DNA from: Savitreella phatthalungensis
Lineage: Eukaryota
Direction of reading: 5' to 3'
Length of the DNA: 64,000 nt
Assembly (NCBI GenBank): GCA_051599415.1
Contig: AP039695.1
Location: forward strand, 434,001 to 498,000
Shown: piece by piece, positions 7,234 to 52,260 of the stretch
Numbering within the stretch: the first letter of the stretch is position 1
How the letters are laid out: each line of letters begins with the position of its first letter
Position numbers and translations under genes: made by a program
The notes under the pieces: model-generated
Told to the model about the DNA's origin: nothing
The model's input: only the letters and a program-made list of their open reading frames with translations
Database searches by the model: none

Positions 7234-8002
7234 AGCTCCCCAAAAGACGAAATGTTCGAAGAACGATAGAGAAGAGGAGAACTTGTTCATGTACGGTAGA
7301 ATAGAAACAGATGAGTACTACTCCTGAGCACCACGGTGCTATGCAATAGCTACTGATATCTCTGAGTGACGCACGTGCAGAAGCTATCTATATCTATATT
7401 TAGCACTTGACTTGATATGATATGACCACGATCGAGGAAGGCAACCGATGAATATGACCTTGTTCAGATACGTAAACAAAAATACAAACATAATCTTGTA
7501 CGATCCCGGCAGAAGTATCATTGATCATGCATCAATGCAAACAATTGCATCAATGCATCAATTGACAGATGAATGCACAGTACTCAATTGAACAGAATTC
7601 AAGTCGAATTTCTATAACAGTCATCTCAATCTAGTATAGGATATATCGAATTGATACATAGAAGATGATCGGGTACTAACTAAACAGGCTGAACTAGAGG
7701 AGTGTAAACTTGTACGAGGATACACAGCCTCGTACAGAATTAAGCGTATACACACACACACACGTATGTGGACATAGATGCATGCAGTATATACGTACTT
7801 GAGTCGATAGAACACGCCAAGCCTTTTCACTCAACCAACAATAACACTAATACCTCAAGACCTTGACTCCAACGACACTCATTTGAAGCGCATCTGTATC
7901 TTCCTGGACTCGCCCAGCATCCGAAACTCTATCACCAGTCCAGATCCATGCCCATCAACTCCATTTCCTAAATTCACCTTCCTACACTCGAGTACCTGAG
8001 CT

Positions 8003-15100: not shown

Positions 15101-16387
15101 TTATGCTGCATCGTGAAACTCGTCTCCGTCTGAATCCTCGTCGTTAATGTTGTCGTCTTTGCTGGTGTCGGTTTTGGTAGGTTGAAGCTGTGGTGGCTGC
15201 TTGAGGTCGGCGGCGTGCCACCAGCCTTCGCAAGGTCGATTGACTCTTGCTGCGAGAGCAATTACGACTTCCGGGACGCGATCGCCCTCTGTCCATATAA
15301 AGAACTTGCGTTTCCAAACACTCCCTTCAGCCTTCTCCTGCTTCCGCAGATCACGCTGCGACTGCTCGATTCCAGACTTCAGCTTTGAAGCGACATCAAA
15401 CTCACCCGCCTTCAGCGCAGCACTCACACCGCCCCACAACCGGCGCGAGTCGTACGCCTGGTCACGCGCCTGCGTCGGAGTGAATGTTGCCGGCTGCATG
15501 CTCCGGAAGTTGAGGAAATCCTGTGAGGGTTGTGTGTTTGGTGTGCTAGCAGGCCTGATGCGGAGTTCGTCTGTCCAGACGCCGTCGATGATCCACTTTG
15601 CCGATTTGTCTGCGGCAGATGAAGGCGTATCTGGGGCGAATGACTGCGGTGAATACACTCGCGTCTTGACTGAATTCTTCTTCCCAGACACCCAGCCTTT
15701 CCCAGTGTACTCGTTCTCGGCCACCCAGCCGCTCGTAGACGAGATGTACGATCTGTCTGCGAGCTCGGCGTACGGTGCACCGTAGAAAAGCCCCTCGAGC
15801 GTCAGCTGCGGGAAAGTGATAAGATACCGCTCGAGCGAGCCGTCTGAGAGTGGCACGGACAACACAGAGAACCCAACCTGCTTGACCTGGATCGTCCTGC
15901 CTGAGAAGCCGCTCTTCTGACCGTTGTGTCCCTCGAGCGTGATGCCGTTGTGCGTGCGGATGAGGTAGGCTGAGATGGGTGGGTGGTGTGAGACCTGCTC
16001 TGCCGTCAGCGTCGCCACGCGTTCCTCTCTGTCTCCACCACTGCCCGTCCAGTACCCGTGGAACTCCTCGCCCAGCACAGGATTCAGTGGCTTCTTCTCA
16101 GCACCCACAGACGCATGCCGAGCGCTGAACTGACCCTTCAGCGTAGACAGATACCACTTGCACACAGCCACCATCCGCTGCTCAGGCGACACCTCGTCCT
16201 TCACGCCCGCCAGCAACTCCGGGTAGTCCGCCCAGTAGGCAGAGTACTCCAACAGCGATGTACCACTCAGGATGAACGATGGCGCAGTCAGCGTCGACAG
16301 GTCGCCAGTGAAGGTCGCGATCGATTTCAAGAATGACATCCATGTAGACTTGTTGTGTCCGGCACTCTCGCCTGCATTGTCAGTCAT
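15101..16387 (-). CDS. KES1: Oxysterol-binding protein, Kes1/Osh4 type
   Basis: WMSFLKSIATFTGDLSTLTAPSFILS, EKKPLNPVLGEEF and the EQVSHHPP signature; start placed at ATG 16387 (MTDNAG). Confidence 0.93.
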   Translation of the reverse strand: MTDNAGESAGHNKSTWMSFLKSIATFTGDLSTLTAPSFILSGTSLLEYSAYWADYPELLAGVKDEVSPEQRMVAVCKWYLSTLKGQFSARHASVGAEKKPLNPVLGEEFHGYWTGSGGDREERVATLTAEQVSHHPPISAYLIRTHNGITLEGHNGQKSGFSGRTIQVKQVGFSVLSVPLSDGSLERYLITFPQLTLEGLFYGAPYAELADRSYISSTSGWVAENEYTGKGWVSGKKNSVKTRVYSPQSFAPDTPSSAADKSAKWIIDGVWTDELRIRPASTPNTQPSQDFLNFRSMQPATFTPTQARDQAYDSRRLWGGVSAALKAGEFDVASKLKSGIEQSQRDLRKQEKAEGSVWKRKFFIWTEGDRVPEVVIALAARVNRPCEGWWHAADLKQPPQLQPTKTDTSKDDNINDEDSDGDEFHDAA

Positions 16388-21696: not shown

Positions 21697-23994
21697 ATGC
21701 GCTTCGGTCAAACCCTCCGTGACAGCCAGCGCAAGGACTGGCCTTATCTAACATATGACGATCTCAAAGTCCTGCTCAAGCAAGACAAGCCAGCAGAGGA
21801 ATGGACTGAAGACGACGAGTCGCGTTTCGTCGAAAGGCTCGATGAAAACCTAGAAAAGGTCTACAGTTTCCAGGCAGAGCACTATGACAAGCTCGTCGGC
21901 GACGTCACCCGACTCGAGAACGAGCTAGACAGCATCCAATCAGCCGCCTCCCACTCCGCAGACGAGAAGCAGGTCAAGAGCTTCATCCAGGGACTCGACA
22001 ACCTGACAGAAGAGAGCAAGGAGCTGGAGAAGTACAGCCGAGTCAACTACACAGGCTTTGTCAAGATTGTCAAAAAGCACGACAAGCTTCACACAAAGTA
22101 CACAGTCAGACCGCTTCTCAATGTGCGGATGCAGGCATGTACTTTCAACAAGGAAAATTACTCTCCCCTCCTCTTCCGTCTCTCTGCATTGTATGCTGGC
22201 GTACGTGAGCTCGCAGAAGAAGATGCCAACTTGGCGAAATCGGTCGGCACGATCGATGGATCGAACTCACAAGCGGTCGGTGACGCCGCGAGCGCGCCTG
22301 CAGTATATCGATTCTGGGTACATCCGGACAACTATATGGAGGTCAAGACCTTCATCCTCCGCCGCCTTCCAGTGCTTGTCTTCACAGACAACGACAAGCA
22401 AGATGTCGACGCACAGGGCTACCACGACGATCCCACCATCACCCAGCTCTACTTCGACTCGAAATTCTTCAAGCTCTACCTCGACAAGCTGGAACACAAG
22501 CCGGAAGCAAAGTCAATCTTCGTTCAGTGGTACGGTAACCTCAAGTCTCAGGCCCAGCTCTTCGTCCACCGTGAGACTTCGACTGGCGAGGACGACTCGG
22601 AAGTCCAGGCAGATTCCTTCCCAATCAAGGAGAAATACGTCCAGGGATTCTTCGCTGGCGAGCCTGTCATGGACAAGCAGTTCAAGAAGCAGCACGACCC
22701 GGAATCTTTCAGCCGCGTGGTCAAGTCAATCCAGGCAGATGCACTTCAGAACAGACTTGAACCCATCCTCCGCGCCACATATACGCGCACAGCATTCCAG
22801 ATTCCTGGAGACGACGCCGTCAAGGTGACCCTTGACACGAACGTCGCACTGATTCGGGAGGATGCGCTTGACACAGATCGACCATGCCGTGACCCAGAAA
22901 CGTGGCACAGACGCGACATTGATGAGCAAGGACAGGAGTATCCATACAAGAGCATCAATAAGGGCGAGATCAATCGCCTGCCCTTCGGCCTGCTCGAGAT
23001 CAAGATCAAGCGCCGTCCCGGGTTCGTTGAGCCCTCTTGGATCGAGGATCTCTCGTCATCCCACCTGGTCAAGGCCGCTCCACGCTTCAGCAAGTACGCG
23101 CACGGCGTCGCCACCCTGTTTGAGAACCACGTCAACCTTCTTCCGTTCTGGCTGCCCGACGCAGACAAAGATATCCGGATCGACCCAACCAGCAGCGAGG
23201 GTCAGTCGGACGACAAGTCGTACCCGCCCAAGATGGTTTTCACTCCACGCTCACTCGAATCGAAGGCTCTGATCGAGGCTGCCCGGAACGCTCGTCACAA
23301 CGCCGGCGATTTGAAACGTCGTGGGGAATCAATCGATGCAGGCAGCAGCTCTGGCAAGTCGAAGAACAAAGAGAAGTCGAAGACGAAGGTGACGTTGGTG
23401 GCAGACACAATGGACGAAGGAAAGACTGCCAACTACGGTGCCACCCGTGACGGTGATTTGCTCGTCGGCGCAAGCCGGATGTCATCTCTGAAGCGCGTGC
23501 GCTCCATGCACCAGGTTCTCACGGGCCACACTATGCACACCGACACTTTCGACATCTCGCAGCTCCCGCCCGGTGTGAAAAAGCCCGGAAAGCTGATCAA
23601 GGACTCTGGTCCGAACAAGGTAGAAGCTAAGGTCTGGTTGGCGAATGAGCGTACGTTCATCAAGTGGATGCACGTCGGCGTCCTCCTGGCAACAGTCGCT
23701 CTCGGGCTCTACAACGCCGCAAGAACGCCTGCAGCTCGGGCAGTCGGTGCCATCTATGCCGTCATCGCCGTTGGCATGGCCGGCTGGGGCTACTACGTTT
23801 ACCAGCGACGAGCACGCATGATCCGCGATCGTTCACCAGAGCACTTTGACGCCTTCTCAGGGCCCATTCTCCTCTGCCTCGCCATGATGATCTCACTCCT
23901 AATCAACTTCTTCTGGAGATACCAAGAACTCTCCAACACACACCCACATTTAGTACCTAACATCATCAGGCCTTATGTCGCAGGCAGCCATTGA
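21697..23994 (+). CDS. VTC2: Vacuolar transporter chaperone Vtc2/Vtc3 (SPX-VTC-DUF202), polyphosphate polymerase complex subunit
   Basis: SPX (MRFG...YDDLK, NYTGFVKIVKKHDK); FWVHPDNYMEVKTFILRRLPVL; YTRTAFQIPGDD; KVEAKVWLANERTFIKW followed by 3 TM helices. These motifs match Vtc2/3 better than Vtc4. Confidence 0.9.
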   Translation: MRFGQTLRDSQRKDWPYLTYDDLKVLLKQDKPAEEWTEDDESRFVERLDENLEKVYSFQAEHYDKLVGDVTRLENELDSIQSAASHSADEKQVKSFIQGLDNLTEESKELEKYSRVNYTGFVKIVKKHDKLHTKYTVRPLLNVRMQACTFNKENYSPLLFRLSALYAGVRELAEEDANLAKSVGTIDGSNSQAVGDAASAPAVYRFWVHPDNYMEVKTFILRRLPVLVFTDNDKQDVDAQGYHDDPTITQLYFDSKFFKLYLDKLEHKPEAKSIFVQWYGNLKSQAQLFVHRETSTGEDDSEVQADSFPIKEKYVQGFFAGEPVMDKQFKKQHDPESFSRVVKSIQADALQNRLEPILRATYTRTAFQIPGDDAVKVTLDTNVALIREDALDTDRPCRDPETWHRRDIDEQGQEYPYKSINKGEINRLPFGLLEIKIKRRPGFVEPSWIEDLSSSHLVKAAPRFSKYAHGVATLFENHVNLLPFWLPDADKDIRIDPTSSEGQSDDKSYPPKMVFTPRSLESKALIEAARNARHNAGDLKRRGESIDAGSSSGKSKNKEKSKTKVTLVADTMDEGKTANYGATRDGDLLVGASRMSSLKRVRSMHQVLTGHTMHTDTFDISQLPPGVKKPGKLIKDSGPNKVEAKVWLANERTFIKWMHVGVLLATVALGLYNAARTPAARAVGAIYAVIAVGMAGWGYYVYQRRARMIRDRSPEHFDAFSGPILLCLAMMISLLINFFWRYQELSNTHPHLVPNIIRPYVAGSH

Positions 23995-29661: not shown

Positions 29662-31574
29662 ATGCCTGCCACTACGTAAGTCACCTTTGTCAAAGTCCTA
29701 GATCCAGAATTGGAACAAAGAGCTTGATCCGCATGCCCGTCTACATCACGAGGATGCAGGTGTCTTCTCGAGGACGTTTGAACTAGGCGCGACCGGAAGC
29801 ACATGTCGGCAGACATCTATGGTCACCAAATGTCAAGTGCTGTTGCGCTCGCTACTGCTAGAGACCTGTCTTTCTCGATATACAGATTTCCTGTGAAGAA
29901 ACCTGTCTGTCATCGAAAGTCTCGGATGTCTCCTCTCTAGTCGACTCGCCAGCAACGGCCGCGATCCACCTTCTTCCTGCTTACTGGACAGATCTGTGTG
30001 AGCGATCTCTGTGAAGGGAAGTCTCATTGCCTTTGTCACCTGCTCTGTGAAGAGCTTGATAAGGACACACAAGTCAGTCGTCAGTCAGGAGTCTTGAGGC
30101 GTACGAGACAAAAGAGTCGAGATTGACCTACAATCATCATGCTCCGCTCGTTGCCTTTAAATCCAGATGAGTCAAGGCAAGTCGTCTTTGCACGACTGCC
30201 GTAGCTCTGTTTCTGAGTACGTCAAGTATTCAGGTGTTGCTGCATGGGACCAAGCCACTTCAGTATCGCGTGAGCGATACATGATCTGATGTCCCCGCGG
30301 CTAAATTCAATCGTCGGAGTTGCGCAGCTGCTGACGAGACTCTTAACGCGAGTCTCGTCTACAGACATTGTGCCCGATCGCCCTTTTTCTTAACTTCCCC
30401 GGAAGCATTTGCCCTGTTTTGTTGGCTGGCTGCCCATCTCTCCTACATCAATTTCGATCTCGGCAGATGAGGTCTACAAGCCCAGTTGCTGACCCAGTTC
30501 TACAGAGCCCCCACCAAGACCAACACACCTGTCCCGGAGTCTATCCTCAAGAAGAGGAAGACGGCCGACCAGAACAAGGCCGAGCGTGACGCCGCCCGCG
30601 TCGAGCGCAAGAAGGTAGGTCTACTCCACTGAAACTCCGCCAACCCAGCAATGTCCTCCGATTAGCGTTTCTCTTTCTGTGTTCCTCGTTCCCGATCCTG
30701 TCCTCTCTCTCTCCAGCGACGCAGCCTCCGCTTGTGATTACACCAAGCAATCATAGTCAGGAGATGCAGACAAACTTTTATTACAACATACCATCTTTCG
30801 GGTCTGAAGCGGTCTTCTACCGCGTCAAGCTGGAGAGATTTAGAGCTTGGGATCGAAATACGGGCGAGAGACTCTGAGATAACTGATCGAGAACAATCTT
30901 GTCGGCCTTTGGAACACTCAGGTTGACAGAAACTAACCCGTTTTTAGGCATCGAAGGCAAAGCGTGATGTCATCTTCAAGCGTGCTGAGAAGTACGTGCA
31001 GGAGTACCGTGCAGCTGAGCGGGAGGAGATCCGCCTGCGCCGTGCCGCCAAGCAGGCCGGTGACTTCTACGTGCCTGCTGAGGCCAAGGTCGCCTTCGTC
31101 ATCCGTATCAAGGGTATCAACAAGATTGCGCCGAAGCCACGAAAGATCATGCAGCTGCTGCGTCTGATCCAGATCAACAACGGTGTCTTTGTCAAGCTGA
31201 CCAAGGCTACCCAGCAGATGCTGACTTTGATCGAGCCATACGTCGCATACGGCGAGCCCAACCTCAAGACCGTCCGCGAGCTCATCTACAAGCGCGGTTA
31301 CGGCAAGGTCGATGGCCAGCGTATCCCGTTGTCCGACAACGCTATCATCGAGCAGGCGCTCGGCAAGTACGGCATCATCTCGATCGAGGACCTCATCCAC
31401 GAGATTATCACTGTCGGTCCAAACTTCAAGCAGGCAAACAACTTCCTCTGGCCATTCAAGCTCTCGAACCCACTCGGAGGATGGTCGGCAAAGAAGGCTC
31501 GTCACTTTGTCGAGAACGGTGACGCTGGCAACCGCGGTGACCACATCAACAAGCTCGTCCGTCGCATGAACTAG
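29662..31574 (+). CDS. RPL7: 60S ribosomal protein L7 (uL30), 249 aa; exons 29662-29675, 30506-30614, 30948-31574
   Basis: Spliced product [23 protein letters not shown]...[10 protein letters not shown]...FVIRIKGIN...[10 protein letters not shown]. Introns GTAAGT..GCTGAC..TACAG (830 nt) and GTAGGT..ACTAAC..TTTAG (333 nt) keep the frame. Confidence 0.97.
29839..30380 (+). ncRNA. Highly structured intronic RNA in RPL7 intron 1 (identity unknown)
   Basis: Many nested complementary stems found by eye, and three hairpins sharing a CTGTGAAG apex (29891, 30009, 30045). Confidence 0.6.
30728..30812 (+). ncRNA. Box C/D snoRNA, snR39/snR39B family, in RPL7 intron 2
   Basis: Terminal stem CCGCT (30728-30732)/AGCGG (30808-30812); box C variant GTGATTA (30734-30740); box D CTGA (30804-30807) preceded by ACCATCTTTCGGGT, complementary to conserved LSU rRNA ACCCGAAAGAUGGU. 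Confidence 0.9.
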
Positions 31575-40124: not shown

Positions 40125-41116
40125 CAGAAACAGTAATCGAGTTTGTCAGCTTCGAACTTTGTATCAACTACTTCGGCCGGAGTAGGAGGTGTGAGGGCCT
40201 GATGGTCGTGTGTATAGAGCGCGTAGAGACGCGACTCTGTTGGAGTTCGATCGATTGAAGAGTTAAAGGGTGTGCTTTACACCATCGATGCGCGTGTGTG
40301 AATGAGCTTCATACACAGTTGCGTACGTCAACGTCTCGCGCCACAGTTCTGATTGATGTTGTGGCTGAGCAGAGCCTGAGTCTCAATTTCGAGACACGTG
40401 AAACCTTTGCAGAATGTTATTTTATTTATAGAAACGATCGCCAGTCTCATTACCTCCTGCGTCACATTGAATTGGACCTCTTACGTAGGACGTTTCAACA
40501 ATATTGCATAAGTATTCGAGGCAGTAGACGATGATGCGCATGGTTAGCACTTCGACCTGGATCAGACTGCAATGTGAATTACTTGCCGTTCACTCGTGGT
40601 ATACAATCTGATGCCCGTCAAGATGGTCAATTGAAGGAGGAAAGGAGATTGCCTATAGGAAGCTGAGCTTTAGTCTGTTTGAAATGAGCCTGACCTGGTA
40701 CAGATTAATGGTGCTTCCTTAACACTGTTTGTACGATTGACCCGTCGCACCTCTGGCAGCGCGTCAAAACGTTCGTACACGCCAGAGTAGCTTCGGCAGT
40801 TAAATTATGCCGACAGCTGTAGCACGCCGGTCAAATGGCTGCAGCTCCACTAGGCTGTCGACATCATTTGAGTGCCAAGCCCGGTACAATTCTAAGGCCA
40901 TAGCCACCTAGTCCATTCATCCTGTATGGCTTCTAATACAGCTTGCTCGGCAGACTCCTGGATCGTATGAGACTAGGTCTATCATCCAACAAGGGCGAAA
41001 GAACATCCTCTAAAGTAAATGCTGTTCACTCTCACTCACTCGGTCACTCCTACTGACTCTCTCACCTCTCTCACTCCCTCACCTCTCTCACTCCCTCACC
41101 TCTGTCACTCTCTCAC

Positions 41117-50715: not shown

Positions 50716-52260
50716 ATGGAGGCAGAAGAAGAGGTGGCAAGCTTCTGTGCCGTCACTGGTGCAGACCCGTCTGCAGCTCAACAGTACCTGGAATTCGCAG
50801 GTGGAGATCTAGAGCAGGCCATTCTCCTCTTCTATGAAAGTGGCGGTCAGACAGGAGCATCCACCTCGTCGGGCTTGAATGCCACCACCTCCACTCATTC
50901 AGCCCCACGTCAGACGATAGACACCGATGATGGTCCGATTGAGATTCCAGACGATGACGAGGATGATGAAGCTATGGCACGGCGGCTTGCCTCTGAGTGG
51001 GGAGGGTCTGGCGCAGGCACGGCTAACGAAGTTCGCGCTCCCATTGCACGCACCCAGGGTGTACTACAGGATGAGATGCCCTTTGACCCGACATCTCTGC
51101 CAGGGATCTTGGGTAATAGATTCGACGCATTGGGCGGGGTGATGAATGGCGGCAGCTCCGGCAGGAGTTCGCGCGGCAGTGGGATCGGTCCTTCCACAAG
51201 GCGAGGCATGGCTCCCCGTGGCATTTTCAATCAGGCCGCACCCAGCGTGTGGGATCGTGTCGGTTCAGACGAGTTTGGGATCGCTGGCGATCGTGAGCTT
51301 GCAGAGAGTACTGGCGGAGCTAGTGAAGACTCTGCCAAGTCATCCCGCCTCGCTCGCCTCTTCCAGCCTCCGTTTGATATCATGGCAGACGTTGACCTCG
51401 AATCTGCCAGATCGGAGGCTCGCGCAGACTCCAAATGGATCATGGTCAATCTGCATGACAGCAGCGATTTCTCATGTCAGATGCTCAACAGAGATCTGTG
51501 GAAAGATCGAACCGTCAAGGCTATCGTCAAAGAGCATTTCCTCTTTCTGCAGTACAACAAGGACAGTGATGATGGTCTATCATACCTGCAGTTCTATCCA
51601 GTCCGTCGGTATCCTCACATCAGTATTCTAGATCCACGCACGGGTGAAAAGGTACGCGAATGGGACAGGGTGGTTGAGCCGGTCGACTTCATCTCAGAGG
51701 TTACGGAGTTTCTGGAGAGCTTCTCTCTCGACGAAGCTGCCTCGAACCCAGTGCATAAGCGACCAAAGACTCCCGCTAAACGTCCCGAGGATATGAGTGA
51801 AGAAGAGCAGCTGAATGCAGCGATTCTAGCATCCGCGGGATTCTCAGCGGGCAACCACACCAACGCATACAGCAGCAACGACAATGGCACGAAATCTAAT
51901 GACAACGAGACCCGCGCAGCGGCAGAGATGGATGAGGAGAATAATGATGATGTACAGGTCATTGATGCGCCTGCCGATGATGCCTTCTCTCGGATTCCAG
52001 CTGAAGTGGGATCGGAGCCAGCAGCATCCGCGCCCGATACAACGCGTATTCAGCTGCGATTACCTAAAGGCCGGATTGTCAGGCGATTCAACCTCAATGA
52101 CCCTGTCGAGCAAGTTTTCAGCTTCGTCAAGACACAGAAACCTGGAGCGCGCTTCAAGATTGTCTTCAACAGAGATAATCTGATCGACAAACTAGAGCAG
52201 ACGGTGGCTGAAGCAGGTCTGAAGAACGCCAGCTTACAAGTCGAGTTCGACGAGGAATAA
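50716..52260 (+). CDS. UBX5: UBA-UAS-UIM-UBX Cdc48 cofactor (Ubx5/UBXN7)
   Basis: UBA-like N-terminus; LARLFQPPFDIM; FSCQMLNRDLWK; ILDPRTGE; UIM MSEEEQLNAAILAS; C-terminal UBX. Confidence 0.92.
   Translation: MEAEEEVASFCAVTGADPSAAQQYLEFAGGDLEQAILLFYESGGQTGASTSSGLNATTSTHSAPRQTIDTDDGPIEIPDDDEDDEAMARRLASEWGGSGAGTANEVRAPIARTQGVLQDEMPFDPTSLPGILGNRFDALGGVMNGGSSGRSSRGSGIGPSTRRGMAPRGIFNQAAPSVWDRVGSDEFGIAGDRELAESTGGASEDSAKSSRLARLFQPPFDIMADVDLESARSEARADSKWIMVNLHDSSDFSCQMLNRDLWKDRTVKAIVKEHFLFLQYNKDSDDGLSYLQFYPVRRYPHISILDPRTGEKVREWDRVVEPVDFISEVTEFLESFSLDEAASNPVHKRPKTPAKRPEDMSEEEQLNAAILASAGFSAGNHTNAYSSNDNGTKSNDNETRAAAEMDEENNDDVQVIDAPADDAFSRIPAEVGSEPAASAPDTTRIQLRLPKGRIVRRFNLNDPVEQVFSFVKTQKPGARFKIVFNRDNLIDKLEQTVAEAGLKNASLQVEFDEE

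Follow-up and report, generated by a model that had tools for sequence, protein, structure and literature searches.

The RPL7 gene and its first intron

The DNA analysed here, referred to as the window, is a 64,000-nucleotide stretch of Savitreella phatthalungensis; its plus strand carries a uL30/RPL7 gene, in whose first intron an original prediction had placed three hairpins with a common tip as a candidate protein-binding element. Coordinates are window positions on the plus strand unless stated otherwise. As read from the sequence, the gene consists of three exons and two introns. Exon 1 (29662–29675) holds ATG plus 11 nt and is followed by the 830-nt intron 1 (29676–30505), which begins with GTAAGT, ends with CAG and contains a putative branch site CUGAC at 30489–30493. 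Exon 2 (30506–30614; 36 codons plus 1 nt) corresponds to positions 1–28 of the Pfam Ribosomal_L30_N profile. Intron 2 occupies 30615–30947, and exon 3 (30948–31574; 208 codons plus stop), present in the list of open reading frames (ORFs), matches the Pfam families Ribosomal_L30_N and Ribosomal_L30.

A metagenome scan with the exon-3 protein yielded 80 RPL7 loci, which served as relatives in the comparisons below. An equally short exon 1, ATG GCN GCN ACT AC with the intron starting at the following GT, was found in L008, L031, L036 and L039, and the full long intron 1 after it measured 620, 643, 525 and 375 nt, respectively. A search within the window found no second copy of intron 1; thus, a dispersed repeat is unsupported.

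Three hairpins in the predicted fold of intron 1

The 8-mer CTGTGAAG occurs at 29891, 30009 and 30045, all within intron 1, exactly where the original prediction had placed it. The complementary stretches that had been named around these copies were also all present in the sequence: the stem ACAGATTTC/GAAACCTGT has one A·C mismatch, TCTC/GGGA and GCTGTTGC/GCAACGGC contain one G·U pair each, and GCTC/GAGC, CTAGAGA/TCTCTAG and TGTGTG/CACACA were found as well. All three motif copies were located at predicted hairpin tips in folds of 29830–30080 and of the whole intron 1; when the fold was limited to exactly 29839–30071, two of the three copies kept this position.

Hairpin 1 (29857–29941) was a long rod in both the minimum free energy (MFE) structure and the fold of 29830–30080. 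Its MFE helices were 29857–29864/29934–29941, 29865–29874/29915–29925 and 29877–29890/29898–29911, and copy 1 (29891–29898) sits in its predicted 7-nt loop CUGUGAA, closed by the pair C29890–G29898. Hairpins 2 (30006–30019) and 3 (30031–30064) lay in a multibranch domain (29983–30085) with the closing helix 29983–30000/30066–30085, and the domain and both hairpins appeared in the MFE and centroid structures. Copies 2 and 3 were predicted to form CU-GUGA-AG tetraloop hairpins with loops at 30011–30014 and 30047–30050; the pairing probability was at most 0.02 in GUGA and 0.93–1.0 in the flanks. The predicted folds recovered the long rod and the multibranch domain that had been proposed, and the tip position of the three copies stood; the claim of one constant apex did not hold strictly, copy 1 having a 7-nt loop but copies 2 and 3 GUGA tetraloops. 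When a GNRA tetraloop was defined as a 4-nt loop on a Watson–Crick stem, hairpins 2 and 3 and a third predicted GUGA hairpin at 30263–30280 belonged to this class, and hairpin 1 fell outside it. Hairpins 2 and 3 have a 10-nt exact repeat in common (repeat family D10), and CTCTGTGAAG recurs at a spacing of 36 nt.

The hairpin context, and not the 8-mer cluster, departs from chance

The original prediction had set the clustered 8-mer against a chance expectation of about 1 per 65 kb, an argument that was post hoc and was weakened by shuffling. The window contains five copies of CTGTGAAG on both strands against 3.68 expected, two of them elsewhere on the minus strand. Some 8-mer occurred three times within 165 nt in 27 of 100 dinucleotide shuffles of the window, so the cluster is weak evidence, and the actual sequence has about five clusters of this kind, the others being TGCATCAA(T) at 7528–7555, CTCGAGCG at 15794–15932, a CT-rich stretch at 41029–41096 and TGGGATCG at 51180–51276. 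The local fold of 29830–30080 had ordinary stability (z −0.50), a level matched by 56 of 200 shuffles. A minus-strand copy of the 8-mer at 22380–22387, antisense to a 765-codon ORF, could form the tip of a hairpin, UUGUC-UGUGAA-GACAA, and this arrangement is probably due to chance.

The structural context of the copies gave a different result. Of 1000 shuffles that changed the flanks but not the motifs, 730 left no copy at a tip, 243 left one, 26 two and a single one all three. GUGA loops on stems of at least 4 bp numbered three in intron 1 (30011, 30047 and 30270) against a shuffled mean of 0.10, and none of 2000 shuffles reached three; the whole window contains six such hairpins per strand. 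Although both tests were selected after the data had been seen, they do show that base composition does not trivially account for the hairpins.

A long zipper stem is predicted between the ends of the intron

The whole intron 1 folded at −286.8 kcal/mol, against −251.8 ± 5.3 kcal/mol for 20 shuffles (z −6.6), mainly because of a long-range stem between its 5' and 3' parts, which we refer to as the zipper. In the MFE structure the 5' arm (29726–29807) pairs with the 3' arm (30364–30438) over 61 bp, and additional pairs lie beyond it at 29706–29713/30494–30501. Cofolding of the two arms gave −72.4 kcal/mol, against −48.2 ± 3.9 kcal/mol for 200 shuffles of the 3' arm (z −6.2), with 64 inter-arm pairs, three of them G·U. 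The stem of about 61 bp is interrupted by mismatches every 3–7 bp. As predicted, it would leave about 50 nt on each side to the splice signals and loop out about 555 nt, the motif hairpins lying within the 5' half of the looped-out region. A perfect hairpin at 30328–30364 (inverted repeat I2; MFE helix 30329–30342/30350–30363) adjoins the 3' arm. Among five introns folded from the relatives, intron 1 of L008, L031, L036 and L070 had predicted long-range 5'–3' helices, and intron 1 of L039 had none.

A conserved core lies downstream of the hairpins

K-mer sharing and motif scans identified, in at least 12 distinct loci (L008, L014, L028–L033, L036–L038 and L040), an intron-1 element made up of several blocks. 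Nearly the whole intron 1 is conserved among these loci, including the 5' blocks UAGUCGUCCUUCUCGCUGGAG and CAGCUCGAUC and a 3' hairpin GAGAAUG...AUUCU. RNAalifold analysis of ten loci (alignment A3) gave a long-range closing helix, a block A hairpin with AU to GC changes, the helices P3 and P4, and the 3' hairpin; P4 consisted of GUCGG-A-UGA paired with UCA-CCGAU. No family of Rfam 15 matched the intron-1 element of these loci, and the sole match in 11 loci was a 5S rRNA gene in L031 (5131–5250, minus strand), which lies downstream of RPL7 by about 1.5 kb.

The only parts of the window's intron 1 with counterparts in other fungi were 30088–30099 and 30201–30322, both downstream of the hairpins. 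The former is block A, GGAGUCUUGAGG, a 12-mer identical to block A of L028–L031 and L033. Position 30088 was the sole site of the block A 12-mer GGAGTCTTGAGG, with no further match on either strand, and GGRGTCTTGAGG likewise occurred once in the window, both strands considered, and was matched in none of 100 shuffles. By eye, 30088–30095 could pair with 30336–30343 as a candidate closing helix, P1.

The latter part, 30201–30322, comprises hairpin P3 (30213–30220/30226–30233), helix P4 (30239–30243/30297–30301 and 30245–30247/30294–30296), which encloses the third GUGA hairpin, and the tail UAAAUUCAAUCGUCGGAGUU (30302–30321). A covariance model (R1), built from ten other loci with the window excluded, aligned the full P3, P4 and tail to this part with 10.7 bits and an E value of 0.0086 over 1 kb. 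On an alignment of the window with L001, L002 and eight other loci (A6), 95.5% of the 88 P4 cells were paired and five of the eight pairs were changed on both sides. The covariation score of P4 was reached by none of 500 shuffles, and controls slid along the alignment were at most 48.9% paired. P3 and P4 were also present in the MFE structure of the window's own intron.

By eye, block A GGAGUCUU (30088–30095) and the 3' hairpin arm GAGUCUCG (30350–30357) are near-copies, and the two may compete for the partner GAGACUCU (30336–30343), which would place a candidate switch beside the zipper; the 5' arm of the perfect hairpin overlaps this partner. The same by-eye reading of intron 1 showed no direct overlap between the candidate competing structure and the zipper.

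The hairpin stretch has no counterpart among the relatives

We then compared the hairpin stretch with the relatives. Intron 1 lacked CTGTGAAG in all 80 metagenome loci; the six matches present in these loci fell within the gene, downstream of it or on the opposite strand. When compared with the 5' parts of nine ascomycete-type introns, the stretch showed no similarity either. GNRA-capped hairpins were not enriched in intron 1 of 14 loci (0.82 per kb, the background being 0.84 per kb). The hairpin stretch looks lineage-specific, because about 412 nt separate the 5' splice site from block A in the window, against about 210–225 nt in L008, L031 and L036. The closest loci, L001 and L002 (80% protein identity), contained only the last 255–290 nt of intron 1, and short contigs from four public runs, 95–99% identical to the window, covered 29685–29835 and 30041–30922 only, with none over 29836–30040 and no joints among them; these contigs carry no information about expression or conservation. 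A protein search with the neighbouring kinase gave matches in mixed fungal phyla.

A small hairpin of the form GAUU-GNRA-GGUU was seen about 45–60 nt into intron 1 of L028, L029, L031, L033 and L008, with GAAA, GUAA or GUGA as its loop, a variation that would fit a selected GNRA loop. This hairpin was absent in L032, L036 and L037.

Intron 2 hosts a C/D-box small nucleolar RNA

Intron 2 contains a C/D-box small nucleolar RNA (snoRNA) of the snR39/snR59/SNORD96 type at 30728–30812, assigned from sub-threshold Rfam matches together with boxes and a stem recognised by eye. Its parts are a terminal stem CCGCU/AGCGG, a degenerate C-like box UGUGAUUA, the guide ACCAUCUUUCGGG and a D box CUGA. The matches to Rfam SNORD96, snoR29 and snR39 all fell on the guide plus D box, ACCAUCUUUCGGGUCUGA, which the window shares with snR39/snR59 (RF01197) and SNORD96 (RF00055); they scored 18.6–23 bits against gathering scores of 40–50, and nothing in the window reached a gathering score. 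The 13-mer guide, with at most one mismatch, was located directly upstream of exon 3 in 27 of the 80 RPL7 loci. In L001 (1–420) and L002 (1–450), exons 2 and 3 are fused, leaving no intron 2 and no snoRNA there. A snoRNA in RPL7 intron 2 mirrors the arrangement reported for yeast RPL7A/B (PMC5295604).

The hairpin stretch of intron 1 was also inspected as a snoRNA candidate. By eye, it has no C/D box pair, and an H/ACA reading of 29839–30075 failed because both an ANANNA hinge and a suitably spaced pocket are missing.

Discussion

The original prediction had invoked feedback of yeast Rpl7 on RPL7B splicing through intron structure, and this precedent is borne out by published work. In Saccharomyces cerevisiae, Rpl7 is reported to repress RPL7B splicing by binding a conserved intron-1 'Hooks structure', and efficient splicing needs a zipper stem with which this structure competes; deletion of any of several stems in the Rpl7-bound structure lowers repression, and the authors expect multiple contacts (PMC12311795). 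The Hooks structure has been reported for Saccharomycetaceae and Candida (PMC4937481; PMC8216456). Judged from its predicted structure, intron 1 of the window's uL30 gene is built like intron 1 of yeast RPL7A/B: the gene is again RPL7, intron 1 likewise follows the first few codons, the long intron has a predicted 5'–3' zipper stem, a conserved multi-helix structure is predicted in its looped-out middle, and intron 2 hosts an snR39/snR59-type snoRNA. Two short stretches of the yeast sequence in table S2 of PMC12311795 resemble core blocks B and D by eye only, and their order differs. Unlike the yeast intron, which is 409 nt long, that of the window has 830 nt and a far longer zipper (PMC12311795), and nothing in the yeast intron sequence of table S2 corresponds to its three CUGUGAAG hairpins. 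In the 80 RPL7 loci, an 18-nt yeast motif gave one chance-like minus-strand match only.

RPL30, RPS14B and RPL22B are further yeast ribosomal-protein genes with autoregulated splicing. The introns of RPL18B, RPL28 and RPS22B are reported to be autoregulated in the same manner (PMC13232506). In these systems, too, a protein senses its own excess through a structure in the pre-mRNA; the proteins and structures are different, and none of the introns is described as having three repeated GNRA-capped hairpins. In fungal L7 introns, Li and Breaker reported two motifs, 'rpl7', described as about 30 nt long, and 'rpl7-l8-s3', which are likewise conserved and structured and for which splicing control via L7 binding was proposed (PMC5640933). 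Rfam 15, judged from scans of the window and of 11 loci, has no entry for any of these intron-1 elements.

On the evidence of the folds and the comparison with relatives, the three CUGUGAAG hairpins are real predicted structures and probably not the conserved regulatory element of intron 1. The core is most likely the uL30-sensing part because it is conserved in other fungi. We consider it an even call that the hairpins are accessory, self-folding modules beside this conserved sensor. In such an arrangement, the zipper (29726–29807/30364–30438) would loop out about 555 nt and bring the 5' splice site into the vicinity of the branch point, and the core (about 30088–30343), lying within the loop, would sense uL30 as in yeast. 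The hairpins (29857–30085) would fill the stretch between the 5' zipper arm and the core as one rod plus a small three-way domain with stable GUGA tetraloop caps, and may package the extra sequence in a way that avoids competition with the zipper or the core. Their common tip could have come from a small local duplication, to which the 36-nt spacing of CTCTGTGAAG would point, from selection for a stable GNRA cap, or from both.

Several results weigh against the hairpins being accessory modules of a conserved sensor. The GUGA enrichment, with the same loop in all three GNRA hairpins, is more specific than selection for any stable cap would require, and one 8-nt tip shared by three different stems is the expected look of a recognised motif. 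Evidence for duplication is thin: Tandem Repeats Finder (TRF) found no tandem repeat, and an alignment of the three hairpin units showed little in common beyond the motif. The term lineage-specific rests on distant loci only, no relative covering the hairpin region. The sensor side is affected as well. Over the whole window, the R1 match to the core ranked second (E 0.55), trailing a spurious 39-nt match by a tenth of a bit; on L001 the model was weak (4.6 bits, E 0.66, aligned as expected), and L002 was not correctly found. An nhmmer profile of the ascomycete-type element gave no match in the window with or without filters, and the window site was not among the matches of a block A/B covariance model (R2) up to E 10. 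Homology of the window core to the core of other fungal RPL7 introns is thus probable, not proven.

The original prediction saw in the hairpins a multivalent platform, that is, extra binding sites for uL30 or another RNA-binding protein that would tune an autoregulatory switch. Such a role is attractive in part: the eukaryotic L7 protein has a basic N-terminal region reported to bind RNA, within RPL7 intron 1 the hairpins immediately precede the conserved core, their loop is identical on different stems, and their hairpin context and GUGA enrichment are non-random. The several stems and multiple contacts of the yeast Rpl7-bound structure argue in the same direction (PMC12311795). Of this idea, the oversized RPL7 intron 1 with non-random RNA structure stands, but the hairpins as a binding or regulatory element are not supported: the conserved parts all lie downstream of them, the conserved core lacks CUGUGAAG, the motif is missing from intron 1 in all 80 loci, relatives show no GNRA excess, and TGTGAA occurred in one of six other long intron 1 sequences, at a different place. 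Since uL30 is highly conserved, a loop that it recognises would be expected to recur among relatives. In the literature, UGUGAAG appeared only in microRNA, small interfering RNA or primer contexts among the matches listed. We regard binding sites as unlikely. Also improbable is that the stretch is neutral, the repeated 8-mer and the hairpins having arisen by chance plus a small duplication and having no function. The frequency of tripled 8-mers in shuffles and in the window itself, the unremarkable local fold and the lack of conservation, both in the 80 loci and against the 5' parts of the nine introns, all fit this explanation, as does the minus-strand copy at 22380, which is also at a hairpin tip though antisense to a long ORF. 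It accounts poorly for the flank shuffles, of which one in 1000 put three copies at tips and 27 in 1000 two or more, for the three GUGA hairpins that no shuffle of intron 1 reproduced, and for the persistence of the hairpins in the whole-intron MFE and centroid structures.

GNRA loops dock into the minor grooves of helices, and GUGA is reported to prefer CU:AG. The three GUGA tetraloop hairpins of this highly structured intron could accordingly make tertiary tetraloop–helix contacts that compact the looped-out domain, or stabilise one of two folds; by eye, the single GAGACU at 30336 could be the object of competition between AGUCUC-like strands at 29919, 30021, 30089 and 30351. Spliceosomal introns are not described as making such contacts, the feature is absent in relatives, and we hold this explanation very unlikely. 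Least credible is that the hairpin region gives rise to a small RNA processed on its own, for instance a snoRNA, and we give this hardly any weight. Intron 2 of the same gene does host a snoRNA, and yeast RPL7B intron 1 is reported to leave a stable product (PMC4937481). The noncoding-RNA origin that had been suggested for the hairpins failed on inspection: no Rfam family matched intron 1 up to E 10, no box pair or hinge was visible by eye, and an ACA would fall inside the closing helix. The antisense ORF at 29833–30072 (79 aa) had no homologue among proteins of 43–139 aa and matched no Pfam family.

Beside the accessory-module reading stands a bolder proposal, which we consider distinctly doubtful. 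The GUGA-capped CUGUGAAG hairpins might be a lineage-specific multivalent add-on to an ancient uL30-sensing RNA, recruiting extra uL30, perhaps through its basic N-terminal extension, or docking into helices of the zipper or the core. They would then define the threshold at which the core prevails over the 61-bp zipper to block splicing.

The three hairpins are at present an unexplained local peculiarity and not a demonstrated element, and they offer a clean, mutable feature beside the core. RPL7 intron-1 autoregulation has so far been shown only in S. cerevisiae, and the structure has been reported for Saccharomycetaceae and Candida. The window, together with a dozen metagenome loci, suggests a far wider fungal distribution of the same design, in which a tiny exon 1 precedes a long intron 1 that is zipped and contains a structured core, with a short exon 2 and a snoRNA-bearing intron 2 after it. 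With P4 kept by compensatory changes, 30088–30343 provides a concrete target for the study of uL30 feedback outside budding yeast.

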